The notes beneath the pieces are model-generated. The model searched no databases. It had not been told where the DNA came from and worked only from the letters and a program-made list of their open reading frames with translations. A DNA stretch of 48,913 nucleotides, the filler included, from Jimgerdemannia flammicorona (taxonomy: Eukaryota): NCBI GenBank assembly GCA_003990765.1. It is 2 parts of 2 records of this genome, joined end to end, with 100 filler letters (N's around TTAATTAATTAA, not from the genome) between each part and the next. Parts side by side here need not be neighbours in the genome. Positions count along the whole stretch, not along the records: positions 24,512 to 48,913 come from RBNJ01000979.1; 1 more part is not named here. One strand, given 5' to 3'. The translations under genes were made by a program, and so were the position numbers. Below are positions 5,609-47,543 of the stretch, one piece after another (the stretch's first letter is position 1; every line of letters begins with the position of its first letter).

Positions 5609-5806
5609 AGATTAAAGATGTGTAATATATATTTCCAGATCAGATTAAAGATGTATAATATATAATTCTAGATCAGGTTAAAGATAGATAATATATATTT
5701 TTAGATTAGATTAAAGATAGGTAATATATATATCTGAGTTAGGTTAAAGGTAGGTGATATATAATTTCTGGTTGGATTAAAGGTAAGTAATATCTAATTT
5801 CAGATT
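5609..5806. repeat. 33-bp minisatellite, 6 degenerate copies
   Basis: Units such as AGATTAAAGATGTATAATATATAATTCTAGATC recur every 33 bp. Confidence 0.8.
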
Positions 5807-7307: not shown

Positions 7308-7343
<36 letters not shown>

Positions 7344-14498: not shown

Positions 14499-14532
14499 TT
14501 TGAGAGCTCAACTGAGAAGATTTCAAATTGAC

Positions 14533-21649: not shown

Positions 21650-21689
21650 ATGATAGTCTGAGGACAGACCATCCTTTAGTTGGGGCTGA

Positions 21690-24008: not shown

Positions 24009-24411
24009 TGTAACGTAGTGGACGCGGAATTTAGTAAGTTGGATGGATTTTGGAATTGGACTGGTTTGATCTGACTCGTTCTGACTCGTTCTGACTCGTT
24101 CTGACTGAGGTTTATTCACTCTAAAATACTGAGTTATTTATACAGATTTGTGTGCTAATTCTGCTACTAAATATGTGGCTAAGTATTAAGTCTTTTCATG
24201 TGAAATTCTCAGGTAGAATCTCATGTGAAATCCTATCTGAAATTCGTGAAAGTAACAAGAGTTTCACTGATAATGTTTTAGATACAGTGTCCGCAGTAAA
24301 AGACTATACTAAATCGGAAATTGGATTCAGGTACTATGATCAAATGTCTATTTCCTGTTTCTATTTCATACCATACGTCACATCTTCCCCCTGAATAGGT
24401 TATTTTTGACA
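24009..24411 (-). mobile_element. 3' LTR (24009-24382) and PPT of a short-LTR element related to 42369-44569, cut by the assembly spacer
   Basis: TGTAACG...CGTCACA termini. Adjacent TCTTCCCCCTGAATAGGTTATTTTTGA is the reverse complement of 44081-44107. Contains a 10-bp tandem TCTGACTCGT. Confidence 0.85.
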
Positions 24412-24511: not shown

Positions 24512-26916
24512 CAGAACTACTGACCATGAGAATCTCGGAGACCTCCTCAAGAAGGCAGAACAGTTACAAAATCAAGCCCAAGGACAGATTATCAAAGCCC
24601 AGGAAAGACAAAAGAAGTACTATAACCAAAAACAGAAGGATCAGAAGATCAAGATTGGAGATCAAGTCCTAGTTTGGAGAAGCATGATTGAGACAAACTT
24701 TGCCACCAAACTGGAACTGAAATAGGAAGGATCTTATCTTGTATATAACATCAGAGGAACCAGTATCTATTTAAGAAATATGGATGGACGAACTCTGAGA
24801 ACAGCAGTACACATCAATTGCCTTAAGATATACTTCTTCTCACACCATGAATCAGAGAATTGACAACTGCCTCCAAACTCTTGTTCTCAGTTCCCTCCAA
24901 GCCCTACCAGTTCCCCTGCCTCAGTTCCGGGAACCCAATGGAACCTATCTTCAGAGAATCTGAGTTTATCAAGAGAACCTCACTTTGGCTGAGAGGCTAC
25001 TCCAGGTCCACTAGCTGCAGGTATATTATGCAATTGGAGAACAATTGCAGAATCTTCCTCTCCCAGACCTAGCCTATGTCCGAAACACCACTGGCCTGAA
25101 CAGAAGGAACACTACTGCTGTAGACAGACTATATACAATATATAAACAAAATCCTTCTGCCTTAATCCAGGCCCAGTTTTTCCTGAATGACCTCCAAAGG
25201 ATGACACTGCCTACCTACCTCAGCATTATTTACCAAGTGGTGACCCTATTTCCTGAGGAAGAAGAAGAGCCCCTAGAATGGAGTGACTATAGCTCAGATG
25301 ATGATGATGGAATAGGTATAGATGCAGAAGCTGCTTATACCTATTGGGATGATGACTGAAGAATAGTCTGGGACAGACTACCCTTCAGTGAGGGCTAATG
25401 TAACAGACCAAAACATACCACCTGAATTAAAACTTAGCCAGATGACATGAACAATTAGCATACTTACTCAGCATGATGTGACTTCCAGTGTATCATAGTT
25501 ACTCATGCCTGCCACACTTATAATTAGCCAAGACACCAGATCAGGATTGTTTACCTGTATCCTGAGGACACACTCATATCCTGTGGACACACTCATGTCC
25601 TGTGGACACACTCATGTCCTGTGGACACACTCATGTCCTGTGGACACACCTGTACCCAGAGGACACACCCAAACATTACTGAAGATAGCAAATCTATAGT
25701 TAGCCACATAGTAACCAGATATCAACCAACTTGTATAAATTACCCCAGAGATGAGAGTGAATAAAACCTCAGTCCAAAAAGTCTGAAATTGAAGCAACAG
25801 ACAAGTCTGCCTACTACAATTCGAGAGGAACTCTACAGCTACTGTTAGGAGATTGTGAGCTTATTTCCCCTTTCCACTCCAGTCTACTTTCCGATACAAG
25901 CTGATTTTGCCGCCTAAGTTCAAGGAGAACTTTGCCACCTTTTGAAGAGTAATCTGCCACTTAAGGAATAAGCCGCTACATTTTTTGGTTCACTTGCCAG
26001 ATAAGCCTGAAGAATCCCAGTTTGCCACCAAGTTCAAGGAAGAACTTTGCTGCCATTTTCCAGTTATCCACCATATCCCCAGAAGAGCCCACCTTTCTTG
26101 CCACAAGCCAGTTTCTGACGCAACTTCACAGTGATCCATTTGCGCAAATAAAGCCAGTCTTTGATGCAACTTTGCCAAGAGACTCTTTCCAAGCCACCAA
26201 CCCATTTTCCAGTTAGAGCCCACTGATTCAGGAAGAACCTACATTATCCACTATTTTTGAGTTATTTACCATATTCCCAGTTGAAGCCAAATCTGTGCCA
26301 TCCAAGTTAATTCTCAGTTAAGCCACCACTTTCAAGAAGCCCGCCAAATCTGCATCATCCACCACTTTCAAGTTATCCACATCCCCAGAAGAGCCACCTG
26401 AGTTGTTCATTATTCCCAGTGAGCCCAGTACTGAAGAAACCATGCTATACATATATTCCCAGTGAGCCAAATTGAATTATTTGTCAGATTATCAAAATGT
26501 CCTGCATAAGGAAACCACTGCACTATATAGAGATCGTCGCACTACACAAGATTGTCACACAGAAATCGCATAAGGAGAACTGCTAAATTACCAGGCCATC
26601 ATGCATAAGGAGATCATCATGCTACACAGAAATCACCTGTTACTCAAGAAGGAAGCCACTCACGCTATACACAAATTGTGCCATTCCCAGTAGACCCAAG
26701 AAGGAAAAGATATACAAACTGCCACTATACCCAGAGAACTGTCCCAATAAGGAAATCACTCATAGATATCCAGCTTTGACTATTATACTGCTAAACACCA
26801 AGGATCTCAGGAATCTTAGAACATTTTGTTGCTTTTTAACAAAGTAACTGGGGCTCAAGCCAAACTATATCAACCCCCAACCTTGTAATTTGCCTCCATT
26901 GAGCTGGCATGTTACA
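24512..26916 (+). mobile_element. 3' part of another Gypsy copy: integrase C-terminus, ORF3, hairpin/PPT, 3' LTR (25399-26916)
   Basis: IIKAQERQKKYYNQ...KIGDQVLVWRS; LTR TGTAACA...TGTTACA homologous to the other LTRs. Confidence 0.92.
24847..25359 (+). pseudogene. ORF3, 170-codon hypothetical protein (best-preserved copy; two internal stops, no frameshift)
   Basis: MNQRIDNCLQTLVLSSLQALPVPLPQF...DRLYTIYKQNPSALIQAQFFLNDLQRM...LFPEEEEEPLEWSD...GIDAEAAYTYWDDD*. The ATG lies just inside the pol end. Confidence 0.8.
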
Positions 26917-27039
26917 ATATTAAAATATAATAGACTTCTTAATATTATATGTATTAAAGACTATTTCATTTGTATAAACAGATTTATTATGAAGATACAT
27001 CTTATACTAGATTAGCTTTAAGTAGTAGACTTCTTCTTT

Positions 27040-27519: not shown

Positions 27520-28341
27520 ATATTGTAATAAATAATAGTATTATTATTTAAAAAATACTATAATTATACTTAGAATATATTAAGAACTTTAACTTTAAAA
27601 TACTTAAAGTCTATAACTTACTAAATTACGATTAGTTAATAAAATAATTAAAAATATAATATATAATACTTCAATGTTAAGCTTAAAATAACTAATAAGT
27701 ACTTGTAGATAATTAATATTATCAGTAATTATCAAACCCATTAATATATCTATTAATTTGATAATAATGATCAGTAAAGTTAGTAAGTAAAGTTAAAAGT
27801 TAACAAATAGATAATATTAGCAGTTAGACAAATTTGGTATATAAATTTATCAGATAAAGTTAACAGATAAAGAACAAGAGTTAGCTGCTAGAAATAAAAT
27901 ACATAACTAGAGCTCTTAATTCTCTATTAATTTTTATTTTTAATTTTTTTTATTTTATTTTATTTTTTTGAACAGATAGGTAATAAACACAATATTTTGT
28001 AGAAGCACAAATTGATGAGCAGGGTTCGTAAAGATAATGTTCTAGTTCCTATGCATTGGCGTAGCAAACAATGCTTGGAAATTACGGAATGCTGGTTTGT
28101 TGGTGAATAGGTGGTGTGAGGTAGACCAATTCCTTCGGCCGAATTTATCCGCACTCCGTGGTAAGATCGATAGCGCTAGGACGGCGAAGGAAATCGAGTA
28201 ACAACGATTTTTGTGGGACATGGGATTGTAAGCGGCGATGACAAATCCACAGATTGCATCATTTATTCGTATAAAGGAGCTCGATATCCAATGTGCTCCT
28301 TCGGTTGTTTCATCCCAAATAGCCTTCTTTACTCTCTACAC

Positions 28342-29252
28342 ATGACCGGTAAGCACAAGCTCCGCTCTTTGGAAACCAAAGAAAACACAAAGCCAATTCT
28401 CTCACATCATCCGATCCCATCCGACCCACAGGGACCGACCCCATCAAGCTTTACACGGCACGCGTTTGCCCGTACGCGCAGCGAGCCAACATCGCTCTCA
28501 AGGAGGCCGGCGTGGAATACGAGGCCATCGAAATCGATCTGCAGAACAAACCCGACTGGTACAAAAATATCAACCCCGAGACCAAAGTTCCCTCGATAAA
28601 TATCCGGGGAAAGAACATCGCCGAGTCGCTGGTGATCATCGAGCTCGTGGCGGACCTGTACCCTGGGTCCGGGTACGTGCCTCCTCACCTTGAAAACTCG
28701 AATCCTATCTTTCCGAATTCCCAAAAACTCATCTCTCATCCATCCCACCCCCCGCGCAGCCTTCTCCCCGCCGACCCGATCAAGAGGGCCGAAATCCGGT
28801 TTTTCATCGATTACTATTCCAAGATTTCGTCGCTGAGTTACAAGGTCCTGGGCGCCCTCAACGACAAGCAAGCAGTTAAGGCCATCTACGACGACATTCT
28901 CAAGGGCTTCAAGCGGGTACCTATCCGTACCTTTTTTATTCTCTTTTCTTCTCTTTCATAAGCCTCACCGTGACCTCCCTACTCCCAGATCAACGAGCTC
29001 CTCCTAGAGCAATCTACAACTGGCCCCTACTTCCTTGGCACGCAATTCTCGCTAGCCGACGTGGCGGTGTCGCCGTTCATCGGACGGTTCCAGATCATCC
29101 GTGACACCTACCTACAGGATTTTGAAATCCCGCGCGAGTACGAGCGGTTGCTGACATGGGCGGAAGCGGTGCGCGACCGGCCTAGTTTTAAAGCATCGTG
29201 GCCTGGGGAAGATTTCATACGGAACGGGTTCAAGAGACATTTGAAGAAGTGA
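28342..29252 (+). CDS. Glutathione S-transferase, cysteinyl (omega-like), 222 aa; exons 28342-28348, 28432-28672, 28760-28916, 28989-29252
   Basis: Three GT-AG introns give an open 669-nt frame: KLYTARVCPYAQRANIAL, IDLQNKPDWY, NPETKVP, IAESLVI, LLPADPIKRA, GPYFLGTQFSLADVAVSPF, RPSF. CpG-rich and unmutated. TATA-like TATAAA at ~28270. Confidence 0.93.
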
Positions 29253-31119
29253 AGTGGTCGGTGTGTTGAAGATAGCTCAATGTGTATACATATATACATA
29301 ACCCAAAATGTATGATCGCAGGTCTATAAATCTGATTCTCAACGATTAAAGAACAGGGAAATGTGTTGTATGAAGAAGAGGATACTGTAAAAGTCGGCCA
29401 AACGAACGAAATGCTTACGGATAATTCGAAAAGTTGCGGATAATTCAGCCAAGCTCATTCATTGAACAACTGGATGAAAATGATAATACTAGCAGAGAAC
29501 AGTCTTTAGACACCCTATGTATGTTATACGATACCCACCAACCACAATTCACTACAAATCCCTCTCCTCCCTTGCATGCATCCCTCCATAAAAATCGCGC
29601 CAGACTCACTGTGTGGACTATATCCCCCACAGCCATTGCTTACCAGACACACTTCCCACATCCCTAGGACAATATTTACATGTGTTTACAATATTCTCCA
29701 TTTTCCCATCTCTACCTACCATTCACCATATCACCATCCTCAACTTAGAATTTTAAACCAAATTAGATAAGCTTATAAAGAAGTTATTATTATTACTAGA
29801 GTTTTCTCAAATGAGCTCAAGGATATATGTATATACCATTGAGAACAATCTAATCTATAATTAAGACAAAGTCTATCTACTAAATAATATAGAACTTCAC
29901 TGTAAGATACATATTATAAGAACATTATGACTCTCCATTTACTAGTTACTTATAAATTGATAAATCTATTAAGAATCTCTAATAATACTACTACTAATCT
30001 AATATGATTAAGAAATAAAGAACTGATTAGTTGTGATCTCTATTAGTATAATAAGTATTGAAATTCTTATTATTATATATCTTAATAATGTAGCTTAAAT
30101 ATATAATTCTTTATAACTATATTATTTTTGAGCTATCACTTGATATGTAAAAATGTAAGCAATTAATAAACAATACTACTACTTTTCTCTTCTACTTCAT
30201 ATTTTCAACATATTTATAATAAAGATTATAAGCTCTACTTAGTCGTAAAAAAAATATCTTTCTAAGACTATATGCTACTTTATACTAAAATGTTGCAAAT
30301 GATAAATCAAGGAGCCAGTGTAAGTATACTAAATACAGGAGACACAGATACCTCTGAAATAGATATAATAATAATTACAATGTCTATTGTTAGTATAAAT
30401 ATAGCCAAGAGATGATTCTTAATCTTTAATAATAAGAACTATATAATTTGAGTAGTTTATATATATAATCTTCTAGAAGAATATAACTTAACAGAATATC
30501 TCTTAGATGGTATATAGGAATGTCTTTTTAGCAGTAATTTTTTTATTAAACTCAATTCATCTAATTATAATTTTTTTTTTTAAATAAAATTTTATTCAAA
30601 GGTAAAAAAAAGTATAAAATATCAATAGTTAAAATATTTTTAAAAAGTTATTATAATTTTCAGACTTATGAATTTTCAAAAAGATTTGCAGCCAAATTTA
30701 TTTATATTATCATCTAAGAGATATAAAACTACTGGTACAGATTTAAGATTATAATATTACAAATGATTACTGAGCATTATATAAGATTATATTTATATTA
30801 TCAAATTTATAAATAAAGTATATAATTTACATAACAACTGTTTACAAAGTAAGAAAGACTTTATATAATTATTATATATAAATATTTATATTAAATTAGT
30901 TCTATCTCAAATCTCAGCTATTTAATCTATGAATGAAGTCTAAGAAGAATATTTGTAAATGTGATAATTATATTGACAATCTGGTAAATTAAGTAAATTT
31001 TCTAAGTATGATAGTAGAGTATATAAATAATAAAGACAAGATTCTGGTTTTTATAAGAAGTCTCTCTGAGATATATAATATTATAATAATAGCTATGTAC
31101 AAAAATAGACTATATCTAC

Positions 31120-32469
31120 TATAATGTGCCAGCTCAATGGAGGCAAATTATAAGGTTGGGGGTTGATGTAGTTTGGCTTGAGCCCCCAGTTACTTTGTCA
31201 AAAAGCAATAAAATGTTCTAAGATTTCTGAGGTCCTTGGTGTTTAGTGGTATAATAGTCAAGCTAGATATCTGCAAGTGGTTTCCTTATTGGGATGGTTC
31301 TCTGGGTGTAGTGGCGATTCATGTCTTTCCTTCTTGGGTCAATCTGGGAATAGCACAATTTGTGTATAGTGTGAGTGGTTTCTTTCTTGAGTAGTGGGTG
31401 ATTTCTGTGTAGCATGACAATCTTGTGCGTGATGGTCTGACAATTTAGCAGTTCTTCTTATGCAATTTCTGTGTGATAATCTCTGTTTAGTATAGGCTTC
31501 CTTATGTGGGACATTCTGATAATTTGGTAGATAACTTGATTTGGCTCACTGGGAATAGTATAGTGTGGATTCTTCAAATCAGACTCACTGGGAACAAACT
31601 GATAACTCAGATGTCGCAGGTTTTCTGGAAATACAGATGACTTGAAAATAGTGGATAACACAGATTCTCCTGAATTGGTAGACTTCTTGAAAAAAGGATG
31701 ACTTCAACTGAGAATAACTTGGATGGCATGAGTTCTTCTGGATTGGGCTCTTCTGGGAATATGAACAACTGGCAGCATTCTTTGGGAAAGGGTCTCTTGG
31801 CAAAGTTATATCAAAGACTGGCTTCATTTGCATGGAGTTACATCAATAGACTGGCTATACTGTGAAGTTGTGTCAACAGACTGGCTTGTGGCAAGAATAG
31901 AGCTCTCTGGGAATATGGTGAACAACTTGGAAATAGTAGCAAAGTTCTTCCTTGAACTTGGATAGCAAATCAGCTTTGTATTGGAAAGTGGACTGGAGTG
32001 GAAGAGAAGAGGACCAAGCTCACAACTTCTTGATAGTGGCTCATTGGCAGGCCTATCTCCTAAGTGTTGCAATCCTTCTTGGATCAAGTGGCTTTTGGCA
32101 GGCATTTCTCCTAAGTGTACCAGACAATTGACTTTTGCTTTGGTTTATATTCAACTTTCAGACTGAGGTTTATTCACTCTTGTCTCTGGAGTAATTTATA
32201 CAAGTTGGTTGCTATCTAGTTACTATGTGGCTAACTATAGATTTGCTATCTATGGTATGTTTGGGCAGATGGTCACTGTCTGGTAGACAGCCACTGTCCA
32301 AGGAACAGCTACTGTTCACATTATTCCCTTCTTTGGCTATCTGGTTATTTATATATTTTTCCACAGCAATGATTGCTGGTTACTAAGCTATATATTCACA
32401 TCATCTTGACTAATTGTTCACATAATCTGATTGAGATATAATTCAGATGGTATGTCTTGGTTTGTCACA
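31120..32469 (-). repeat. 3' LTR of Gypsy copy 2
   Basis: Direct repeat of 40025-41373, bordered by the PPT complement TCAGCCCCTAC. Confidence 0.92.
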
Positions 32470-32508
32470 TCAGCCCCTACTGAAGAGTAGTCTGTCTCAG
32501 ACTATTCT

Positions 32509-33015
32509 TCAGTCATCATCCCAATAAGCATAAGCATTCTCTACATCTATGCCTGTTCTATCATCTTCATTGTCTGTACTGAGATTACTCCATTCTAGTT
32601 CTGGATCTTCTTCTTGTCCTTTGGAAAACAGAATGTCTACTTGTTGGAGAATACTCTGAAAAGTAGTCTCATTCATCTGATGAATATCATTGAGGTAGAA
32701 ATGAGATTGTACTAGGGCTCCAATATTTTGTTTGTACAGGGTGTAGATTTGTTTGGCAGTTCTTACTTCTCAGCAGGTTATCCCAGCTAGTCCTTCAATA
32801 TATGACTGTTCTTCAAGTAATTGTCTGATATTGTAGAAGGCTTATAGATGGTGGATCTGTAACAACCTTTGGGCAATAGCAAGGTTCTCTTGATGCTTCT
32901 GGATCAATTGTATTGGGGTTCCTTCAAGTTGGCAGAACTGGGGCAAGGGAACTGGTAGAGCTTAGAAAGAGCTAAGGATGAGAGTCTGAAGGTACTGTTC
33001 AATCCTTTGGCTCAT
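32509..33015 (-). pseudogene. ORF3 of copy 2 (168 codons; three stops explainable by C>T; no frameshift)
   Basis: MSQRIEQYLQTLILSSF*ALPVPLPQF...TAKQIYTLYKQNIGALVQSHFYLND...QQVDILFSK...ELEWS...GIDVENAYAYWDDD*. Confidence 0.8.
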
Positions 33016-36000
33016 GGTATAGAGGAATATATAGTTTGAGGCAATTGATGTGTACCAGTGTTCTCAGGGTTCATCCATCTATGCTTCTTAAATAGATGCT
33101 GGTCCCTCTGATATTGTGTACAAGATAAGGTTCTTCTTATTTTGATTCCAGTTTGGCAGCAAACTTTGTCTCAATCATGCTTCTCCAAACTAGGACTTGA
33201 TCTCTAATCTTGATCTCCTGATCCTTCTGTTTTTGGTTATAGTACTTCTTTTGTCTTTCCTGAGCTTTGATAATCTGTCCTTGGGCTTGATTATATAACT
33301 GTTCTGCCTTTTTGAAGAGGTCTCCAAGATTCTCATGATCAGCAGTTCTGGTTCTCTTAACAAACATCATTTCAAATGGCTTTTGTTTGGTGGAGGCAGC
33401 AGGGGTGTTCCAAATTTCCCATAGGATCTCAGGTAAGCAGAGGTCCCAATTAGTAAGATTGACTCAGGCAAGTCCTTTCTTGATGGTCTGGTTCATTCTT
33501 TCTATCATACCATTGGTCTGGGGGTGGTATGATGTGGTCTTTTTGAGGTGGATCTTGTAAATTTGGGCATAACTTGTGATTATGTTATTGATGAATTCTG
33601 TGCCTCAATCAGAGATGAGTTCTTCTGGAGGTCCATATCTGAGTGTGAGTCCATGGAGAAGGCCTACAATGGTTAAGGCATCTGCGATTTCCATTGGGAA
33701 AGCCTTGGGCCACTTGGTCAGATGTTCTACAAATACAAGAATGTATTTGTTTCTTCCTGGGGTAACTGGTAGAGGCCCAATTACATCTACTCTCCATCTC
33801 TGAAAGATGTGAGTGGGTGGGGGAATTGGTTGCAAGGGGGCTTGATAGTTCTTCTTTTCTTGGTACTTCTAGCAAGTGTCACATTTCTGGATAATGTCTT
33901 GGACTTGAGTTCTGAGGTGGGGCCAGTGTTGATACAGTTTTTGAATCTTGTCTTCTGTACTTGTCTGTCCTTGATAGGCTTTCTGATATTCTTATCAGAT
34001 GAGATCTTCTTATTCCTTGATGGTCTGAGGAGCTTCCTTTAGGGTGTAGTTCCTCAGGACACCCTTCTTCTAGTTCATTGGAGCTGGTGGGAAAGTACAT
34101 CAATATTGTTGTGAGCTTTCCCTGCTTTGTGGATGATAGTGATTTTGTAATCCTGAAGGATAAGGATAAGGATCTAGCGGACTAGGATTCTAGTGGGTTT
34201 CTTACAGTTGAATAACTATTTGAGGGCTGCATGGTCTGTGATCAGGGTGAACCTTTTTCTGATGAGATAATGTTTGAACAGGGTGACCACCCATATGACT
34301 GCAAGGCATTCCAGTTTGGTGCTACCATAGTTCATCTGCTGCTGATTGGTGGCTCTGCTTGCATAAGCTATTACATGGTGCTATTGATTGTATCTTTCTT
34401 AGGCTAGAACTGATCCGAGGCCATCTTTGGAAGTATCTGTATATAAGATGAATGGTTTCTGTAGATTGGGGCACACAAGGATTGGTGCTGTAGTCATGTG
34501 GTTTTTGAGTGCTTTGAAGGCTTTTCCTTATAATTCTGTCCATTTGAATGGCACTTCTTTCTTGAGAAGGATCTGGATTGGGGCAGTGATTTGAGCAAAG
34601 TTCTTGATAAACCTTCTGTAGTAGGATACTAGCATCAGAAATAATAGTATCTCTATTGGGGTTTTGGATACTGACCAATTGTTGATCTTCTCAGTTTTCT
34701 TTGGGTCTGTATAGATTCTTTCTATTGAAACTATGAATCCAAGGAATTCAAGTTTCTGTTTTCCAAAGTAGCATTTCTTTGCATTCAGTCTCAAGTGGTT
34801 CTTGCAGGTGAGTTTGAAGAATTCCTTTAGGTGGTACAGGTGTTCTTCGAAATTTGCTGAGTAGATGTTGGAATCATCCATGTATACAATCAGGCAATGG
34901 TGGATCAAGGGGGCATAGACTGAATTCATCATCCTCTGGAAGGTGGGGGGTGCATTGCAAAGTCCAAAGAGCATTCGGAGGTACTCAAACAGTTTTCCTA
35001 GAGCAAGGAAGGCTGTCTTTTGAATGTCTTTGGGGTCCATGGGGATCTTATGGAATCCTGCGAAGAGGTCCATACTGCTGAAGTATCTGGCATCTTATAA
35101 CTGATCCAAAAGGTCATCGATTCTGGACAGAGGATAGGCATTCTTTTCTGTAACTGAATTGAGTTTCCTGTAATCTATACAAAGTCTCCATCCTCCTTTC
35201 TTTGGTACAATAAGTATAGGGCTAGCCCAAGGGCTGATAGAGGGTCAGATGACTCCATTGTCTAAGAGTTCTTGGATGTGCTCTTTTTTGAATGTCTTCA
35301 AGTGATGGGGTATTCTATAGGATTTCTGCCGGATGGCTGTAGTATTTTCTGTATTTATGCTGGGGTGGTATAATGGATTGTAGGGCAGGTTGCCATAATT
35401 GGTGGTGAAGATATCTTGATATTTGTTGAGAAGTTCTGCTAGTTGTTGTTGTTGTTGAGGTATCAATTCTCCTCCAATGTTGATGGAAGGCTTGACTGTC
35501 TCTTGGGTCGCAGAGGGGCCTTTCCTTTCTTCTGGGACCTTTTGCTGTTTCCCAATAGGTTTAGTTCATAAACTTCCCTATGAGTTCGGTTGAGAAAAGG
35601 CACCATATGTCCTATGATGTCCTATGATGGTTCCTTTTGGCAAGATGATGGTTTCCCAACTTTGGTTGGTTGCTCAGGAGTGTACTGGATTCATCTTGTC
35701 AGGGAATGTATGCCTCTCTATGTCTAGGTGTGGGATATCTTCCTTGGGCTCAAAGAAAAGGTTTCTGGGGTTGGGTGGTACAAAGATTTCAAATGTGGTT
35801 TGTTCTCCAGGTTCCAGGATGAGGTTCTGGTGTAGTCTGACTGGTTGGCAGTACACTTGCTGGGGAATATTCCTCTTAAGGTGGTTGACTTGAAGGAGAT
35901 GTACCTCCTTCCTGTCTGAACTTCCAAATCCCTTAGCTTGTCTTGTTCCTTCAGTTAATTCAGAGACTTCCTGTAGCTGTGGAGTCTTGACCTTCATGAA

Positions 36001-39000
36001 GACTACTTGGGCAATCTTCTGTCCTCTAATGATTTGATGCCATTCTGCACTGCTGTTATGTAGGATGACCTTGATTTTGCCTATATATCCAGGGTCAATA
36101 GTTCCTCCTTCTACAGTTATCTCTTGTCTGGCAAGTCTGGACCTTGAGGTCAGTTGAATATAAGCTCCTTAGGGTAGCTACATGGCTAATCCGGTTCTGA
36201 TCATGAAGGTTTTTCCAGGCTTGATAGATTCATCCTCCAGGCTGTGAAGATCATATCCTACATCCTCTGGGTAGACTTTGGTCAAGGGTTTGGCCTTGGG
36301 GTGCAGCAGGACATACTGGGCAATATCTTTACTGAGTCCAGGCTTTTCTAAGGCTGAAGCTCCACTAGCAGAGAGCCTCTAAGCTCTATGGTTGAGGTGT
36401 AGCCATCTGGCTCCAGTAGAGGGGTCTTGGAGGTATTTGATTCCCCTCCTTCCTATAGGGTCAAGGGCTTCCATGAAGTTGGTGGCATCTTCTGCCCATC
36501 CTTGGCAGGTTGCATGTCTGATGAGAGCTAGGATGTCTTCTCCCAGATCATAGATCTTGAGGATTCTTTTTCCAGGCTTCTTGGTCTGGCTTTTTCGAAT
36601 CTGGCTTTTTTGGATCTGACTTCAGTTATCTCCTTTCTTCAAAGTGTGCACTACAACATCATGACTGAGGTGAATCTTCTGGTGTCTGCAGTCTCAGCAG
36701 TCAGGGTATTTCCCATGGTTGCAATATCCCATTGCCTGAAAATGATGTTCCTGGCTATTTGTCTCTTGTTGTCTTGGGAATTGGTATCTATCTTGATTAT
36801 AGGTTGGGGGAAGAGTGGACAAGGGATATATTTCTATTCAGGTGAAGAAGCCTTATCCCCTAAATCGACTTTGTAACCTTATGGTGACTTCTTGAAAGGT
36901 GATAGACTATGCAAGAGTAGTTGGGGGTTCTGGTCTCTGAGGTCTCTGTCTTTCTTATTGGTCCAACAGATGACACTGATAGCAGTAGTCTTGGGGAGAG
37001 TGGAAGACCATTTGGTGCAGACATCTTTCTAGCCAAAAAGCTTTCTCTTAGTGAGTTTCTTTCTTGGGAATAATGGCGATTATACTGGGTCCTTCTTCTG
37101 TATTCCAAGGATTATTGTCTTCAGGTGGTGTCTAGCAAGGGTCATTCCAGAGAATGAGTTCGGGGACCTCTTCTTCATCAGGTGCTTCTTGTTCAGGAAC
37201 TTCTTGGTCAGAAGTTTCCTCTTCCCCAGATGATTCTTGTCCCCAGATTGCTTACACTTCTGCAGCTTCAGTTGCAGGTGTTTCTGGAATATGTCTGCAT
37301 TTCTTCTTCTTCCTCCTGCACTCTGGGCAGGCTGTGCCAGGCGATTTCCTTGTTCCTATGATCTTGGAGGAGTGCTCAGGACACTTGTATCTCTTGAGAC
37401 ATATAGGGCATCCTTTGGCTTCTCCTGCAATAGCTCCTATGGTAATAGGGATAGTGTTCTTGGCCCACACATTATCTTCTGGTCGGTCATCCACCAGATT
37501 GATTTGGGGATTGAGTCTGGGATCATTTCCATCTTCAGATTCTTCCTCTTCTTCTGTGGTGGATTCTTCACTACTGGCATACTCTTTCTGAATAGTGACC
37601 TTCTTCTTCTTCAATTGCTCATAACTGGTCACCTTAACTCTGTACTTCTTGCCTCAGTAGTCAAACTTGAGTACTTGTTGGCTAATATTGACAACTGCAT
37701 TTATTTCCTTCATCCAGTTGGTATCAAGAATTATGTCATAGGTGACAGCTTCAGTGACAACAGCTTTGGGAATAGAGAACTGAATGTGTCCAAGAGAGAT
37801 GGTGATATTTCATACTTCTTCAAGGGGTTGAGTTCAGGCTCCATCTGCTACTATGATGCTGAGGTTGGATGGTCCATCAATGGGCCATTGAATGGTGTAC
37901 AGAAACTGTTTGGTGATGACACAGACAGCTGCCCCTGTGTCTATGAGAATCTTCGCCTTTTGTCCTCCAATATCTCCATGTAGGTAGGTGCTGACATGTC
38001 TTTCAGCTGCATGAACAGGGATGGGAACTGGTTCTTGCTGTGGGATTGGGACTTGGCCAGTGCTAGAACTGGTGGTTCTCAGTAATTTGTTTCGAACTCC
38101 AGCTGGTGTCAGTTGCAATAGCTGCAGCAGAGAGACTTCCATTTTGGCTTCTTGAATCTTCTGCCAGGCTTCATTATAAATGTCTCTAGGCATGGTCTTC
38201 AGAGTGTACTTCTTCTTAGGCTTTGGAGCAGCAGGTTCCTGTTCTTTTTGTTCCATTTCTTCATCTTCTGGTGGCAACTCATTTGTCTTAGGGACAAAAG
38301 GTGAGGGGGTTCAGAGAGGTGTTTCTACTTGTTCCTCCTCATGTTCTTCATCCTCTTCTTCGATAATTCTTCTACTGATGTTCCTGGATGGTCTTCCTAC
38401 AGGTCTCTTTCTTTTCTCTGCTGGATAGACTGTTTTCCAGGTTATAACCTTAGTGGGGTATAAGTCTAGGTCACTGTAGTCTACACTGTTGCTTGCTTCT
38501 TCGAAATCTTCAACAGGATGGGCTTCAGTCTTCTTGTACTGAGTGTCATTCCTTTGGTTTGGTGGTTCTGAGTCCCTTGGGTCACTTCTTTTATTATTAC
38601 ATTCAGTAGCATAGTGTCTGAATTATTCACAGTGGAAGCATTGAACCTGGGCTCTGTCTTGGACAGAGTACCTTCTTTCTTCATACTGGTAATTCCTGTT
38701 ATCTCTTGGTGGATAACCTTGGCTCCTCTGTGGTGGATATCCTCTATTGCCTTGGTAGCCCCGATTTTCACATGTAGTGAGTTTTTCAATCTGTCCAACC
38801 AATTGGTCCAGCTTAGAGCTAAGGTCTTGGATTTCACTTCTGTCCTTCTTTTCTTCCTTGGCTGGCCTTCTTTCCTCAGATCTTTCTTGTCCTTGAAGGA
38901 GTCCTTGCAGGGCTTTGACCAGGATATCTTCTTTATCTTCTTTTTTGTCATGATCACTTCAGGTAGTTCCTTGTCTGACATCAAAGAATCCTTGGGCTAT

Positions 39001-39990
39001 ATTTACTTGCACTGGGCAATATTTGGGGGAATCCCATTCATGAAGGTCATTGGGCCTATGATGTCCTGGTTGGTGTCATTGAACCCAGCAGAATACATTC
39101 TCTTCTGGATTCTTGTGAAGAAGGCTCTAGATGATTCTCCAAGATTCATCTTTATTCCCATAATGGATTCCTGAGCCTTGTGGCAGATTTCATTTCCTGC
39201 ATACTTTTCAATGAGCCAGTGGACCATGGCCTCATATTCCAGCTCATTAGACATTGCTGCTTATATCTGTCTTGCTAGTTCTGAATCTCAGTTGTTTGCT
39301 GTTCAATGGAAAATTCCTCTGGCTGGTTCTCTGAGCTGGGCTTTGTAGATGGTGATTTTTCTTTCATCTGAGAGATTTCTTAAGGCAGTAATTCCTTCAA
39401 TTCCATCAAGGAATTCTCTGGGATCTTCCTCTGGGTATCCTGCTAAAATTGGCAATGAGGTGGCCATCTCGTCATCACTTTCTTCTGATTCTGGTTCAAG
39501 TTCAGATTCTGATTCTGATTCACTTTCTGAACTGTCACTAGAGATAGGAGTGCTTGGGTATCTTGAGGATAGTGTTCTAGTTCTTGGACAGAGTGAAATA
39601 GGCCTAGGTATTCTTATAAGAGCTACTTCTGGTTCTGCAAGGAGTTGTGGTAGGGGTTCTATTGGTGAGATTAGTGGGACTGGTGTGCAGTGTCTGGCTG
39701 TAAAGTATTGGGTTTGTGTGATATGATTTTCTGGTTCTTGTACAAGTTCTCCAAAATCTCTAGCAGGGCTGTCTGTATTGTCTGGTTGATCTGGTTGGGG
39801 ATTTCAGGCTATACTGCCTTCTGGTACTGGTTGGGATCCTTCTGATGCTGGGTAATTGGCAAGTATTGAAGTAATTACTTCTCTTCCTATCCAGATACTG
39901 GTGATAACTGGTTCTCCTGTAGTAGCAGAGGTTGGTGTTATATCAAATATATCCAGCTTGACTGTGGGTTCTTGTGAGCTGAAAAGTCAT
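33000..39990 (-). pseudogene. gag-pol of Gypsy copy 2
   Basis: KAKILIDTGAAVCVI (protease); LFGLCNAPPTFQ and VYMDD (RT); FQRWRVDVIGPLP...EELISD (integrase). Confidence 0.92.
35913..36306 (-). pseudogene. dUTPase domain within pol (copy 2, two stops)
   Basis: DVGYDLHS, TSRSRLA, GGTIDPGYIGKIKV, GQKIAQ, RQAKGFGSSD. Confidence 0.9.
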
Positions 39991-40004
39991 GTTGATTTGA
40001 AATC

Positions 40005-40022
40005 TTTCCAGTTGAGCCCCCA
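40005..40022 (-). promoter_or_regulatory. Primer-binding site, probably tRNA-Pro
   Basis: TGGGGGCTCAACTGG directly after the 5' LTR. Undoing CpG decay gives TGGGGGCTCGACCGG, close to the tRNA-Pro PBS TGGGGGCTCGTCCGGG. Copy 1 has TGAGAGCTCAACTGAG at ~14501. Confidence 0.7.
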
Positions 40023-40024
40023 AA

Positions 40025-41373
40025 TATAATGTGCCAGCTCAATGGAGGTAAATTACAAGGTTGGGGGTTGATATAGTTTGGCTTGAGCCCCTAGTTACTT
40101 TGTCAAAAAGCAACAAAATGTTCTAAGATTCCTGAGGTCCTTGGTGTTTAGTGGTATAATAGTCAAGCTAGATGTCTGCAAGTAGTTTCCTTATTGGGAT
40201 GGTTCTCTGGGTGTAGTGGCAATTCATGTCTTTCCTTCTTGGGTCAATCTGGGAATGGCAGAATTTGTGTGTAGTATGAGCAGTTTCCTTCTTGAGTAGT
40301 AGGTGATTTCTGTATAGTATGACGATCTTATACATGACAGTCTGGTAATTTAGTGGTTCTCCTTATGCAATTTCTGTGTGATAATCTCTGTGTAGCATGG
40401 GCTTCCTTATGTAGGACATTCTGATAATTTAGCAGATAACTCGATTTGGCTCACTGGGAATAGTATAGCATGGATTCTTTGAATCAGGCTTACTGGGAAC
40501 AAATTATAACTCAGATGTCACAGGTTTTCTTGGAATACAGATGACTTGAAAATAGCAGATGATGTGGATTCTCCTAAATTGGCAGACTTCTTGAAAAAAG
40601 AACAGCTTCAACTGGGAATAACTTGGATGGCATGAGTTCTTCCAGATTGGGCTCTTCTGGGAATATGAACAACTGGCGGTGTTCTTTGGGAAAGGGTCTC
40701 TTGGCAAAGTTACATCAAAGACTGGCTTCATTTGCATGGGATTATATCAATAGACTAGCTCTACTGCAAAGTTGCATCAACAGACTGGCTTGTGGCAAGA
40801 ATAGAGCTCTCTGGGAATGTAGCAAATGACTTGGAAATGGTGGCGAAGTTCTTCCTTGAACTTGGGTGGCAAATCAGCTTTGTATCAGAAAGTGGACTGG
40901 AGTGGAAGAGAAGAGGACCAAGCTCACAACTTCTTGGTAGTGGCTCATTGGCAGGTATATCTCCTAAGTATTGTAATCCTTCCTGGATCAAGTGGCTTTT
41001 GGTAAGTGTTTCTCTTAAGTGTACTAGACAATTGACTTTTGCTTTGATTAGTATTCAACTTTTGGACTGAGGTTTATTCACTCTTGTCTCTGGGGTAATT
41101 TATACAAGTTGGTTGCTATCTGATTACTATGTGACTAACTATAGATTTGCTATCTATGGTATGTTTGGGCGGACAGTTACTGTCCGGCAGACAGCCACTG
41201 TCCAAGGAATAGCCACTGTTCACATTATTGCCTTCTTTGGCTATCTGGTTATTTATACATTTTTCCATAGTAATGATTGCTGGTTACTAAGCTATGTGTT
41301 CACATCATCTTGGCTAATTGTTCATGTCATCTGATTGAGATATAATTCAGATGGTACATCTTGATTTATCATA
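40025..41373 (-). repeat. 5' LTR of Gypsy copy 2
   Basis: Direct repeat of 31120-32469; termini mutated (TG>TA, CA>TA). Confidence 0.92.
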
Positions 41374-42368
41374 CTATATAATAATAAGTCTTATGAATGA
41401 GAAAATTTATTATGAAAATAGTGGTAATAATAATAAAAAAGTATTCTATAGATTATATTAATGAGATAAGAAGTACTAATAAGGTCAAAAATATAAATTT
41501 AAGTTTGATAGCAATTATTATTACTATAGTAAATATAAATATATATAAAATGATTACTATTGTAAAAATAAGTATAAAGATCAGTATTGGTAATATGAGA
41601 GCAGTAGAAAAAATTGAGAGAATGATAAAGAACAATATAATACAAATACTACCAAAACTGATAATAATTAAGATAGAGGTATATTTTATATATAAATACT
41701 ACATATCAAGTATCTGAAAAATTTGAGACAATAAAAAATAATAATGTCAATAGTAAAGTATATACATACTAATATAACTAATAATAATAATATATAGCTT
41801 ATAGATTCTAGTACTATATAATATATAACAGTCTATAGGAAATAATTTTCCATGTACAAGCTATTTAAGTATTTAGTACAAATTAAATTAGATAATAATA
41901 ATATTATATATACTTAAGAAAGAGAAAATATTAGCATATATCTCTATGAGAATATTGCAGAGCTTGCTAGTACTTTTTAGAATATATTATATACTCTGAA
42001 GATAGACAAGAATCTCTTCTCAATTGATAAAATAATAATCTATGATAATAAAGAAATATATATATTCATATCTAATAGATTCAGAAAAATTTTGTAAAAT
42101 TAAAATTTTTTAAATTTTTAAACTTTTTTTGACTATATTTATTATAAATTTTCAATAAAAATATTTTGTAAAAAAATTAATTTTGTAATTTTTTTTTTTT
42201 TTAATCTCATATTTATTAATAAAAGTATATAATAAAAAATAAAATAAAAAATTATAAAATTTAAATTTTTTTTTAACTTTATATTTATAAGTAAATTTTC
42301 TTTTTACATATATAAAAATTATATATTATTTTTCAAACTATATACAGTTGCTTTCATTGGATATATAG

Positions 42369-44569
42369 TGTGATGTATGGTATGAAATTGAAATAGAAAA
42401 CAGACACTTGATCACATCCAGTCCCAAAGTAGTATAGCTACATAGTTAGCAGTTCTTGATTTCACCACTTGCTAAATATTTCACAAAGTGTGAGATCAAG
42501 CTTCTCAATATAGTATAGCATTTTGCAACTGGTGAAATATTTTGCAAAGTGTTAAATGACTCATAATTTAGCCATGTAACCCAGTAACCATCTCATAGCT
42601 AGCAAACTTATATAAATAACCCAGTATCTTCAAGTGAATAAACCTTAGATCAAAATAGTTCAAAGCAAAGAGATAGTAAAGGAACTAGTAAGCCTGTGAG
42701 CAGATACACTTCAAACTCACCCACTCTCCCCTACAACTCAAAGGACTCTGAGGAGTCAGAGAAGATCAAGTTTTCAAGATACAGAAATCTGACATACTTT
42801 CAAGAGTAAGCATCTGCTACATTACAACTTAGTGTCCATTGGCTGGTGATTCAAGATGAATCCTCACTTTTAAGCTGAAAAATGAACAACTGCCAGACTG
42901 CCAGACCACCAGACTGCCATACAGACCATCATGTTACATATGGTATTTGTCTGTACCATCTGCTGTTAATTGGTTGTTCTGGTTGTCAGCCTCATTTCTG
43001 TGAACCATCATTGGTATTGAACAATAGACGCTCTGCAAAGGACTGCATCATTGAGTTAATAGCCAGGTTGCTCTTTAGTTCGAGGGACAACATTATAAGA
43101 ATTAATCACCAAAACGCTGAATAAACTGCCATATGAATGGACCACTATGGAGAATTAAAAGACATTGTATATGAACCACCTGACATAAGAATGCTGCCTG
43201 ACTTTGGATGACATACAAATGGAATGGACTGCCCCAAAGAATTAAAAAGACATCATATACAAACTACCTGAGTGAAGAATACCACCCAAGTGAAAAATCC
43301 CACCCAACTTTTGAAGATACGAATGCCACCTGTCATGCATTGTATTCATCTCTACACCATCTGCTGTTAATTGGTTGTTTCGGTTGTCAGCCTCATTTCT
43401 GTGAACTGTCATCAGTATTGAACAATAGATGCTCTGCAAAGAACTGCATCATTGAGTTAATAGCTGGGTCACTCCTTAGTTTGAGAGACAATGTTACAAG
43501 AATTAATCACCAAAATGCTGAACAAACTGTCATGCGAAGGACTGCCATGGAGAATTAAAAGACATCATATACAAACTGCCCAAGATGATATACGAATAGA
43601 CTGCCCCAAAGAATGGAGAAGTCATTATATATGAACTGTCTAAGTGAAGAATACTGCCCAAATAGACTGTCATGAAGAATTAAAAGACATCATATATAAA
43701 CCGCCCAAGTGAAGAATGCTGCCTGACTTTTGAAAAATGCCGTCATCTGACTTTTGATGACATATGAATGCCTGAACTGACCTGGAGAATTAAAAGACAT
43801 CATATAAACCACCCAAGAGAAGATGCCGTCCGACTTTTGATGACATATGAATGCCTTCTGACATATGAACACCACCCAATTTTTGAAGACACCATCACCC
43901 GACTTTTGAATATGTTGTCGGACTTTTGATGACATTCTGAATTAATTATTTGAAGACTTTTTTTTGAGACCTTGAAAAACATTCTGACAACCACTTGGAT
44001 ATAATATTATAAACAAGTCTATGTAGGGGGAACAAATGTATAAACATTGCAATATAAGAATTTGAATAGGTATTTTTGTATCAAAAATAACCTATTCAGG
44101 GGGAAGATGTGATATATGGTACATATGAAATTGAAATAGGGAACAGACACTTGATCGCATCCAGTCCCAAAGTAGTATAGCCACATAGTTAGCAGTTCTC
44201 AATTTCACCACTTACTAAATATTTTGCAAAGTGCAAGATCGAGCTTCTCAATATAGTATAGTATTTTGCAACTGGCGAAATATTTCACAAAATGTTAAAT
44301 GACTCATAACTTAGCCACATAACCCAGTAACCATCTCATAGCTAGCAAACTTGTATAAATAACTCAGTATCTTCAAGTGAATAAACCTCAGATCAAAATA
44401 GTTCAAAGCTAAGAGATTGCAAAGGAACTAGTAAGCCTGCAGGCAGATACACTTTGAACTCACCCACTCTCCCCTGCAACTCAAAGGACTCTGAAGAGTT
44501 AGAGAAGATCAAGTTTTCAAGATACAGAAATCTGATGCACTTTCAAGAGTAAGCATCTACTATGTTACA
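42369..44569 (+). mobile_element. Non-autonomous LTR element (large TRIM/LARD-like, 2.2 kb)
   Basis: LTRs 42369-42826 and 44108-44569 (TG..CA); TSD ATAG; PPT AGGGGGAAGA; repetitive internal region without gag/pol motifs. Confidence 0.9.
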
Positions 44570-45559
44570 ATAGATATATAGTATATTTTTTAAGTATTGA
44601 GCAAGAAATCTAACAATAATAATAAATATTTTAGAGATAATAATCTAACTTCTGAGAAATTATAGACTAAAGCTAAATCTGATATATCATATCTATATAT
44701 ATATTCAGATATAATATATATATTCTCAATAAGAGTAATACTAATTAATATAAGTTTAAGCTAAAAGTTAACAAGTATATATTTTTTAGATATTTTAATA
44801 AGAAATATTAACTCTGAAATCTATACAAGTATTATATAGTTATATTATATAATATATAGTTTAATAAAAATAAAAATAAGAAGAAGATTTATATAAATAT
44901 ATTGATTAGAACTTCTATATTAATCTTTATCAAATTTAGAAACTAGTACTAATCTCTTTAATAAAGTAAAATTATTTTTAACTACTATATATATCTAAGC
45001 TAAGAATAATAGAGATTAAGAATAATAAGACCTCTGATAATAATAAAGAGTTTATCAAAGATAAGAAAAAGCCAAAGTATAAGTCTAAAAACAAAACTCA
45101 TTCCAATTTAGAGAGTAATTGAAATATATCAAAGATCTCTTGATATAAAGACTATATGAACTATATATATTAAAATATATAAATTGATATTTATTAAAGT
45201 TCTTAAGTTACATATTTTATATATTACTAATAAATAATGTAAATCTGATAAAATAGCATAATTAAGTATTATATATCAAGTTACTATCTTAACACTCTCA
45301 CTCAATAAGATATATATCTAAAGGTAGAAAAAAAAAAAAGAGTAAAAAGCAATATAATGTATACAAAAACTAGAACTATATAATTCAGAATGATAACTAA
45401 TATAAAATCCTATATTTAAGAAATTTTCATAGGTTGAAAAGTATTCCAAAATATCTGAAATATCTACAAAATATAATATATATAATCTGCTCATAAATTA
45501 GGAATATCAAAGTATATATTATATAGTAAGAGAGGCCTTTGTAGTCTGAAAAATATCTC

Positions 45560-47100
45560 TAATGATATCTCCAAATCATCTAAATGTAAGCATATTGCTC
45601 AATGACTCATTCCTTGAATGTATAGCTTGAACTTTAGCTTTGAAAGAACTTTTATAAGTGAATTGACAATCATGTACTCTGTGGAGATATATTTCAAGTA
45701 TATAGTACTATTTTCTATACATTCTCATACAAAATGATATTATATATTGATATGTTTTATTCTACTATGATATACTGGATTCTTGATAAATACTATTGTT
45801 GACTGATTATTCTACTTAATCAGCATAGAGTTCTTCTTAGTGAAGCTGAGCTCTTTTAATAGTTTATAAAGCTAAATAACTTCCTTTATTGTCAATAACA
45901 ATGCCTGATACTCTACTTGTATTAATAATATTACTATGGATAATTTATTACACATTAGCCATAAGATGACTCCTTTGTTATTTTCATTAATGTAAAAGAA
46001 GTATCTGATAATAGATCAGTAGTCATTCAGATCACCTGTCTAATCTATATCACAAGTATCAGATAGCTGAATAGTAATGTTATTGTTCTTACTCAATCTT
46101 CTGAGAGTGAGTGTATAGTATACCATATCCTTAAAATGTCTGAAAATCCTTTTAACAGTTCTCCAATATACAGAAAGAATACTGTTCCATCTTATTTATG
46201 GTATATGATATATTGGGCCTCATTCTAAGAATGAGATATATAAGAGAACTGACTGCTTGCTGATAGAGAATATTTTTAGTAGATATATTGTTATTGTTAT
46301 CCTTAGGCATAGTATTTAGCTTTCTTAACTTTGTAGAAGTATCTATAGAAGTACTAATAAGCTTTTATTTATTTATATTAAAATGTTTGAAAATTATTTA
46401 ATCATATGTCACTTGCAAGAGATATATAACATATATGTTTCTGTTATATATAATAGATATATATCTCCAAAAGGAAGGATGTGTCATATATATCTATCAT
46501 CCTAAATTCTCAGCATAGAGATAATTACTGATAGTAGTATATGAAGGTAGAATACATTGTCAATAATAGCTATACTGTTTCTAATACTATTATAGTAGTA
46601 GTTATTATAATAAAGTAGGTCTGCTTGCTTAGATACTCAGTGAAGATAATAATTACATCTCTTTCTTTTTAGGTTTTAGCAATTAGAAAATGAAGTCTAT
46701 TTCAATATAGTCTTAATTTTAAGTGAGAATTGATAGTAATTATAGGTATCTGATTACTGAGCTTATAACTTTAGTAGATATTATAAAATATAATATAATT
46801 CTTGATGTCAGGTATCATTTTGAGCTAGTAAAAGTCTCAGGAAATATATTGATATGTCTTGTTGAAATACATATATCTAGCTATAGGTATATTGAGTAGT
46901 TTATCAATTCTTAGAAGTATATATTAGTTCTTAATTAAGATCTTATTAAGTACTCAGTAATTAATGTATATATAGAGACTTCTATCATTCTTACAGATAA
47001 AGAGGATTAATATACTATATAGTAATTTTGATAGACAGATGAGACCTTTGCTTATTAATTCTGCTAGTTATTCCTTGAGGATCTCTAGCTCAATTTAGGC
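45560..47100 (-). mobile_element. Ty1/Copia element C remnant (RT-RNase H); may extend further on both sides
   Basis: Reverse strand: (D)NQSTI...KNPVYHSRIKHINI*YHFV; KYISTEYMIVNSLIKVLSK; WRTVKRIFRHFK. Confidence 0.75.
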
Positions 47101-47543
47101 TAGTTAATAGATTCTATAGTAGGAAGAGTCTGAAGTAGAAATATTTTCAATACTCTGTTCTATTGCTTAGACTGGTAGTAGTTCTTAGTATTCTTGGAAA
47201 ACATCTTCATATTCTTTGAGTAGTTCTTGGAGATTGTCTTTTTTGTTATCTTTATCTTTTAGTAGTTTGAAGAGTTCTTCATCTTCTTCTTCTGAGATCT
47301 CTTTAACTATATATATATAGATATACTAGTCTAGATTTCAAATCTACTTCTTCATCTAGATGACAGAGATAACGTCATATCTGGGCTTTGGTTTCTTCTT
47401 AGTATACTCAGATTGTAACTTAATATCTCTTAGAGAGATTATATTAATTTATTAATCAATGTAGGAGTTCTTTTAAGTGAGATAGAATAATTCAAAGATG
47501 AGATTGTATTTAGAAAGATATGTAATATAGAAGGTTTGTCACT

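Follow-up and report, generated by a model that had tools for sequence, protein, structure and literature searches.

Ordered loss of cytosine, CG first and CT last, in retrotransposon domains of a Jimgerdemannia (Mucoromycota) genome, and its possible origin in DNA methylation

The 48,913-nucleotide stretch of DNA analysed here (the window) carries two domains of dead long terminal repeat (LTR) retrotransposons and older relics in which cytosine has been replaced by thymine in an ordered fashion: CpG has been lost completely, CpA and CpC have been converted in part, and CpT has nearly been spared. The changes run from C to T, postdate insertion of the elements, and are distributed by domain along the window, which derives from a fungus of the Mucoromycota. 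This pattern is best read as the trace of 5-methylcytosine (5mC) placed over the repeat domains by DIM-2-like enzymes and subsequently deaminated, with CG far ahead of CA, CA equal to or above CC, and CT far behind, a reading to which we give a probability of roughly 0.55.

The host was identified from a glutathione S-transferase (GST) gene in the CpG-normal island between the two domains, which also provides an unmutated comparison zone. The best homologue of this gene belongs to Jimgerdemannia flammicorona, followed by Endogone sp. at 60% and then by Umbelopsis and the Mucorales. Because its exons are identical to the J. flammicorona protein over all 134 aligned residues, interrupted by a single 29-residue gap where an intron was read through, the source is J. 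flammicorona or a near-identical relative, in the Endogonales of the Mucoromycota and outside the Dikarya. A first-pass annotation, made from the sequence alone, had described repeat-induced point mutation (RIP)-like conversion of CpA/TpG to TpA in an apparently non-Dikarya fungus, and its placement of the host was correct: the fungus is not an ascomycete, in which ordinary RIP would have been the obvious account.

Self-comparison with BLAST located two full-length LTR retrotransposons of one family, elements A and B, the internal parts of which are 83% identical, together with a further LTR, copy F, and a partial copy, fragment G (Table 1). Pfam finds aspartyl protease, dUTPase and RVT_1 reverse transcriptase (RT) domains in the internal parts, and their closest database matches contain RVT_1, RNaseH and integrase domains, a domain content that identifies both elements as Ty3/gypsy and not Copia. 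Dozens of stop codons interrupt every frame of A and B, and both elements are dead.

The two LTRs of element B differ at 132 of 1347 aligned columns (124 transitions, 8 transversions), and those of element A at 168 of 1188 (138 transitions and 30 transversions, 14 of the latter lying in the first 150 columns, a gapped and possibly misaligned stretch overlapping a short tandem repeat). The differences in pair B comprise 48 single exchanges between CA and TA, 21 double sites with TG in one LTR and CA in the other (42 differences), 9 exchanges between CG and TG or CA, 15 between CC and TC, 5 between CT and TT, the 8 transversions, and 5 sites with a differing neighbour; the first five classes in pair A number 53, 21 (double sites), 4, 18 and 7. 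Once CpG-derived sites are set aside, pair B retains 73 transitions to 8 transversions. Two further repeat pairs, both in the AT-rich zone, behave likewise, with 38 transitions against 2 transversions in one and 26 against none in the other, and the two LTRs of a pair are equally loaded (42:40 and 51:45). The first-pass annotation had compared only the first 110 bp of the LTRs at 31120 and 40025, and its count is exact: six differences, all transitions, five between CA and TA and one between CC and TC. As 19 of the 46 C/G positions there are in CpA/TpG context, five or more of six has P = 0.047, which is weak evidence when taken alone; the whole LTR pairs are decisive. The conversion of the terminal TG of the LTR to TA, also described earlier, is seen in three of six LTR copies.

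Complete loss of CpG after insertion is the strongest signal in these comparisons. No CpG is conserved in both LTRs of either pair, and few survive in single copies. TG stands opposite CA at 21 sites in each LTR pair and at 56 sites between the internal parts of A and B, and this reciprocal arrangement implies that a CpG was present at insertion and that each copy lost it by deamination on a different strand. The 21 reciprocal sites, together with about as many concordant ones, indicate that each LTR entered the genome with roughly 40-50 CpGs, a near-normal content; the ancestral CpGs, some 42 per LTR, have since all decayed. At the inferred ancestral CpG sites of six LTR copies, the dinucleotide is now TG in 117 cases, CA in 114, TA in 34 and CG in 32, with copy F appearing to hold most of the remaining CG. 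The symmetry of TG and CA is a prediction of two-strand CpG deamination, and TA, at 13% of decayed sites, is similar in frequency to the per-copy CpA rate and fits two independent steps. In the coding sequence, TGA stands at seven arginine-codon positions of both A and B. The observed/expected ratio (O/E) of CpG is 0.03-0.07 in A and B and 0.03 in the old relics, but reaches 0.72 in gene zones and 1.15 across the spared part of LTR F; the earlier remark that CpG is nearly absent holds for the repeat zones but not for the genes.

A second layer of change lies outside CpG. When C/T differences with the same 3' neighbour in both LTRs are counted, with both pairs and both strands pooled, CpG differs at 13 of 13 sites, CpA at 101 of 376 (27%), CpC at 33 of 189 (17%) and CpT at 12 of 341 (3.5%). 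The odds ratio is 10 for CpA against CpT (p = 1.6e-19), 5.8 for CpC against CpT (p = 1e-7), and 1.7 for CpA against CpC (p = 0.016). Rates are similar on both strands, and a purine 5' of the C raises them (ACA 40%, GCA 39%, CCA 23%, TCA 12%). The class of exchanges between CA and TA requires change outside CpG, because the passage from CG to TA itself needs a step at CpA or TpG. The first-pass annotation was justified in placing CpA-to-TpA change beyond ancestral CpG sites, as seen from stops derived from CAA and CAG and from the CpG-retaining copy F, which has CA at three of the six early sites (two were reported). Its choice of CpA as the main target did not survive: CpG is changed to saturation, CpC is affected almost as often as CpA, and CpT alone is spared.

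The direction of change is given by stop codons, which are derived by definition and here stem mostly from transitions. Of 26 stops private to one copy, 22 differ from the sense codon of the other copy by transitions only, including seven CAA to TAA, five CAG to TAG and three TGG to TAG; 12-14 are of the type CAA or CAG to TAA or TAG, and related proteins have glutamine or tryptophan at several of these positions. Polarised by majority against the other copies as outgroups, the per-copy rates are 9.5% for CA to TA, 5.7% for CC to TC and 1.3% for CT to TT, with reversals from T to C at 0.1-1.0% outside TpA; the apparent rate of 3.6% for TA to CA is probably mispolarised parallel change. Overall, C became T at 93 of 1696 sites and T became C at 33 of 2480, a per-site ratio of about 4 that predicts an equilibrium near 20% GC, and the old relics stand at 24%. 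A simple majority-outgroup polarisation was dropped, since parallel CpG decay in the outgroups produced spurious T-to-C changes giving CpA (34 and 28 cases).

Dinucleotide composition provides a check that is independent of alignment. From the spared part of F, through A and B, to the old relics, O/E moves from 0.90 to 1.28-1.32 to 1.49 for CT/AG, from 0.54 to 0.69-0.77 to 1.18 for TA, up and then down for CA/TG (1.08, about 1.25, 0.85), and from 0.86 to 1.16-1.18 to 0.90 for CC/GG. This is the trajectory expected if CG is lost fast, CA and CC slowly, and CT hardly at all. Repeats affected by RIP conventionally show a high TpA/ApT (threshold about 0.89) and a low (CpA+TpG)/(ApC+GpT) (threshold about 1.03). 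Elements A and B have TA/AT of 0.59-0.97, (CA+TG)/(AC+GT) of 1.25-1.75 and negative composite indices of -0.3 to -1.1 (over 31001-41000, TA/AT is 0.59-0.89 and (CA+TG)/(AC+GT) 1.39-1.73), and the old relics give borderline composite values (-0.28 to +0.30). The second index is raised in A and B because CpG decay adds TpG and CpA, the opposite of what Neurospora-type RIP produces, and for the same reason standard RIP indices would miss the signature described here. The sole 1-kb window that passes strict RIP thresholds, 27001-28000 (TA/AT 1.38, (CA+TG)/(AC+GT) 0.57, composite +0.81), has 20% GC and lies directly upstream of the GST gene island.

The window as a whole contains 375 CpGs, which cluster in three gene zones (1-2821, 28027-29598, and 47373 to the end) and in smaller CpG-retaining patches at 24014-24376 and 43029-43919. 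The left boundary of the mutated sequence lies inside LTR F. Up to position 2821, F keeps its CpGs and has a low TA content; from 2822 it has no CpG, TA O/E rises to 1.21, and TA stands where other copies have TG (49 cells) or CA (47), as compared to five or fewer of each in the spared part. That CpG loss and TA gain stop at one point ties both to a single domain-bound process, and the boundary at 2821/2822, next to a P450-like gene, resembles the limit of a chromatin or methylation domain.

Table 1. Coordinates of repeat domains, retrotransposon copies and the GST gene island in the window
Feature	Position	Strand	Description
CpG-free repeat domain	2822..24013		17 CpGs over about 21 kb; includes element A, the Copia-like relic and the Ty3 RT relic
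Second CpG-poor repeat domain	29599..47372		Holds element B and 23-28%-GC relics; partly CpG-retaining patch 43029-43919
Element B	31120..41371	-	Full-length dead Ty3/gypsy; LTRs 31120-32467 and 40025-41371, 90% alike
Element B internal domains	protease 37837-38310; dUTPase 35677-36168; RT 34531-35094; then RNaseH/integrase	-	From Pfam, homologues and tblastn map
Element A	13294..22881	+	Dead copy of B's family; LTRs 13294-14498 and 21692-22881, 85% alike
LTR F	2022..3350	+	A/B family; some internal sequence to 3480
Fragment G	24512..26919	-	Partial copy of A/B family; some internal sequence and LTR piece; used as outgroup
Copia-like integrase remnant	12275..12787	+	Old; rve and SH3_retrovirus pieces below Pfam cut-offs; 26%-GC sequence
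RVT_2 piece	23083-23229		Matches Copia remnant, on far side of element A; weak Pfam-type match
Ty3 RT relic	6395-6811		Within the CpG-free domain 2822..24013
GST gene island	28027..29598	+	CpG O/E 0.9-1.1; coding pieces within 28353-29252; Pfam GST_N/GST_C

We infer methylation as the cause of this decay, and DIM-2-like proteins as its enzymes. Repeat-rich intergenic stretches would be, or would formerly have been, blanketed by 5mC with CG as its favoured context, CA and CC next and CT nearly ignored, laid down most likely by DIM-2-like methyltransferases aimed at heterochromatin, and the methylated C would deaminate to T either spontaneously or with enzymatic assistance. Retrotransposons would arrive with a normal CpG content, after which both LTRs would lose every CpG independently, to TG or CA, while the resulting and pre-existing CpA/TpG and CpC/GpG would convert more slowly to TpA and TpC/GpA. 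The predicted end state is TpA-rich sequence of about 24% GC in which surviving C is mostly in CpT/ApG, with genes and the few hundred bases around them staying outside the process. The first-pass annotation had left the choice between a RIP-like process and heavy non-CpG methylation, and the second option fits better.

Candidate enzymes for such a process are listed for the host. One survey reports DIM-2-like homologues in Endogonales and describes RID as 'exclusively conserved in the Pezizomycotina' (PMC9963178). For J. flammicorona, the available part of its Dataset S1 lists three DIM2-class proteins (1187, 1038 and 1085 amino acids, with BAH and C5-methylase domains) and the H3K9 methyltransferase KMT1/Clr4; it lists no RID and none under DNMT1, and DNMT5 is not among its entries (PMC9963178). 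The naming of DNMT1 and DIM-2 in early fungi is disputed (PMC7862722), and another study credits arbuscular mycorrhizal fungi with RID while sister clades of Mucoromycota have lost it (PMC8298701).

Several points weigh against methylation by DIM-2-like enzymes as the cause. The results come from one 49-kb stretch and essentially one repeat family. The CpA excess narrows under other analyses: unanimous outgroups give CA 20.6%, CC 11.3% and CT 6.9%, with T-to-C rates of 6-10%; the strictest pair analysis gives CA 3.3%, CC 4.4% and CT 0.8%, with 312 differences unpolarised; and taking the diverged copy F as the reference yields TA in about 17% of cells at CA/TG and about 9% at CT/AG. The sparing of CpT is robust to these choices, whereas the rank of CpA above CpC is not. 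An intrinsic, genome-wide context bias in C-to-T change may contribute. The boundary in F may reflect an effect of homology, given that F is most diverged from the other copies in its spared part. The link to an enzyme would be by analogy with ascomycetes, and in Zymoseptoria tritici, according to the part of the study available, mutations spare CG, while CG is lost completely in the Jimgerdemannia repeats. One review table assigns DIM-2 'all CpN contexts, CpT preference' (PMC13297926). A literature search by title found no Jimgerdemannia methylome paper.

The alternative that survives best is that methylation is confined to CpG and that the remainder is ordinary AT-biased decay, with an intrinsic neighbour effect favouring CpA and CpC over CpT and no special mutator, an account that is possible but not probable. 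It draws on the predominance of CpG loss, which far outweighs every other effect, and on the ratio of about 4 between C-to-T and T-to-C change, which predicts a GC content near the 24% of the relics without any burst of mutation. The more conservative analyses reduce the CpA excess to 2-3-fold, there is no strand-run clustering, and a gene-like duplicate at 1-253 and 47544-47796 differs by transitions only (13 of 13) with most CpGs kept. Against it stand the post-insertion gaps between contexts, 7- to 10-fold for CpA over CpT and 5-fold for CpC over CpT, which exceed usual neighbour effects. The dominance of transitions outside CpG-derived sites in pair B and the common end point of the TA shift and CpG loss in LTR F argue in the same direction.

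A more doubtful suggestion is that the Endogonales possess a RID-independent mutator driven by DIM-2, which actively converts C to T at CG, CA and CC in heterochromatic or repeated DNA. Less probable again, and indeed unlikely, is a true RIP-like defence, in which DIM-2-like enzymes sense homology without RID and actively convert C to T at CG, CA and CC in duplicated DNA during a stage of the life cycle. The transition share is very high in every repeat pair, and both LTRs are equally hit, as such a defence would have it. Copies at 83-90% identity are near the limit at which Neurospora RIP stops recognising repeats, and B has a quarter of A's transversions per site (8/1347 versus 30/1188) with 0.7 times its CpA change. 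These figures hint at early, front-loaded mutation, but little weight is put on them: 14 of the 30 transversions of A fall within the first 150 columns, which are gapped. DIM-2-dependent mutation of repeats also has ascomycete precedents, in Zymoseptoria and in the heterochromatin route of Neurospora. However, A and B score negative on the RIP indices, and CpG, a poor target of RIP in Neurospora, is the best target here. Runs tests at decayed CpGs found no same-strand runs of TG or CA along the copies (P = 0.98, 0.61 and 0.75), a result to be read with the limit that several rounds of mutation would likewise have wiped them out; single transitions are clustered in B alone (P = 0.006), perhaps owing to local base composition. 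LTR F is unaffected over half of its length, although this half aligns in places, at low identity only, with decayed copies. A kingdom-wide k-mer screen, as far as its available text goes, places repeat-directed signatures in Ascomycota only (PMC12543289), and RIP signatures were reportedly undetected in Gigaspora or Mucoromycotina (PMC8647823, citing Venice 2020). Canonical RIP is likewise unlikely. APOBEC3-like editing of cDNA by a cytidine deaminase during reverse transcription would fit retroelement targets, C/G to T/A changes and the carriage of a dUTPase, a domain linked to uracil avoidance, but it is close to refuted, as one-strand G-to-A change is expected whereas rates are alike on both strands, the two LTRs of integrated copies differ from each other and relics are affected too, and the mutational load is distributed by chromosomal domain, with one boundary falling inside LTR F.

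The remaining features of the repeat domains concern the history of the elements. Element A is nested in an older Copia-like relic, as weak Copia pieces lie on both of its flanks in 23-28%-GC sequence. Older Copia elements that decay to TA-rich sequence, as first described, correspond to weak Copia remnants in zones of 24% GC, but the two full elements are Ty3/gypsy. A Pfam search of 101 stop-free pieces from the AT-rich zones gave four weak transposon-type matches only. The dUTPase domain (PF00692, E = 4.6e-16), present in B and in the matching part of A, lies between protease and RT; fungal gypsy elements with a dUTPase have been described before. Seven bases just outside the LTR end are alike in three insertions (2015-2021, 31113-31119 and 22882-22888), reading TATCTAC/T on the plus strand (the reverse complement for A), and the flanks further out differ; either the element has a target preference or the LTR end has been set seven bases short. 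No clear target-site duplication was found in the flanks of A or B. A metagenome scan with a 17-base LTR motif returned 32 loci, none with BLASTN similarity to the window, and these are chance matches. Outside the window, a homologous Ty3-type polyprotein from a metagenome (P0061, 1773 amino acids) carries a C5 DNA-methylase domain at its C-terminal end and is an example of a retrotransposon-borne methyltransferase. Within the CpG-free domain, a tandem array of 33-bp units at 5574-5837 shows many G/A and C/T variants between units, and the GC skew over 4001-6000 is +0.48, with C much rarer than G on the given strand.

The gene zones have features of their own. Of the P450-like gene (239-1526, plus strand), only pieces spanning the N terminus to the K-helix region are present; no haem-binding exon was seen ahead of the poly-T run (about 1587-1650) and of LTR F, which starts at 2022, and the retrotransposon may have truncated the gene. 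A protein search with a piece of this gene was uninformative as to taxonomy. The duplicate at 1-253 and 47544-47796 is inverted and 95% identical, with 7 of its 13 differences at CpG and both copies in GC-rich, CpG-normal zones; it may be an inverted segmental duplication that brackets the whole repeat block. Runs of N at 24412-24455 and 24468-24511 (scaffold joins) adjoin the CpG-retaining patch at 24014-24376 in an otherwise CpG-free domain, and the join across 24412-24511 may unite pieces that are not neighbours. A search of sequencing runs with the GST stretch found part of it in three runs, with no RNA run among those listed.

A transposon-decay signature in the Endogonales contrasts with surveys that, in their available parts, confine such signatures to Ascomycota or report none in Mucoromycotina (PMC12543289; PMC8647823). 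With only methyltransferases of the DIM-2 class listed for it, J. flammicorona offers a natural test of DIM-2 in the absence of RID and DNMT1, and its repeats bear on whether methylation-linked mutation of repeats predates the Dikarya. Were the DIM-2-driven mutator real, there would be a RIP-like defence outside the Dikarya, and repeat mutagenesis by the DNMT1 superfamily would predate the split of Mucoromycota and Dikarya. Such a defence would still have failed to prevent a genome of this size: Jimgerdemannia genomes are about 240 Mb, and that of J. flammicorona is given as more than 77% repeats in the text available of a review (PMC10386755). CpG-adjusted Kimura ages would misdate elements such as A and B.

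Comparison with known systems places the signature between several of them. As in the RIP of Neurospora and other Pezizomycotina, C:G pairs in repeats become T:A, elements die by stops and leave AT- and TpA-rich relics, and CpA-to-TpA change is large by raw count (101 single exchanges between CA and TA in two LTR pairs). Unlike Neurospora RIP, CpG is the first target per site, CpC is nearly equal to CpA, (CA+TG)/(AC+GT) is raised in the younger elements, strand runs are lacking, and the mutated area follows domains and not repeat limits; RID, moreover, is reported absent outside the Pezizomycotina in the partial text consulted. Ascomycete RIP, according to the available part of one survey, prefers CpA, or CpT or CpG in some species, and needs RID (PMC4352252). 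The same partial sources attribute CpG-directed hypermutation with a high transition/transversion ratio in Basidiomycota transposable elements to deamination of 5mC (PMC4352252; PMC3318451), and report for Tuber melanosporum, with its large repeat-rich mycorrhizal genome, a CpG signature in 40% of transposable element copies and a CpA signature in 25% (PMC4352252). The combination of CpG and CpA makes Tuber the nearest compositional analogue, but it is an ascomycete with RID and Dim-2 classes, and the basidiomycete pattern is restricted to CpG (or TCG) and linked to DNMT1/Masc2-class enzymes; a CpC component with sparing of CpT is not described for either in the text available. Rhizophagus irregularis, a Mucoromycota-related plant symbiont, resembles the present case in CG methylation of transposons, with bimodal, repeat-centred 5mC and DIM-2/DNMT-class genes (PMC8647823, PMC8298701), whereas those papers, in the parts available, map methylation and not mutation spectra.

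The closest likeness is to the Dim2 system of Zymoseptoria tritici, although the host here belongs to the Mucoromycota and the enzyme would be linked by analogy. As given in the available text of that study, Dim2 places 5mC at CG, then at CA and CC, with CT almost completely without it, and raises CA-to-TA mutation in repeats during mitosis, with more than 98% of C-to-T changes at CA and, in the evolution experiment, CG not mutated (PMC8016269). Like that system, the process in Jimgerdemannia is confined to transposon regions and would need no RID, and the order of methylated contexts, from CG through CA and CC to nearly none at CT, finds its counterpart in the order in which C has been lost from the repeats.

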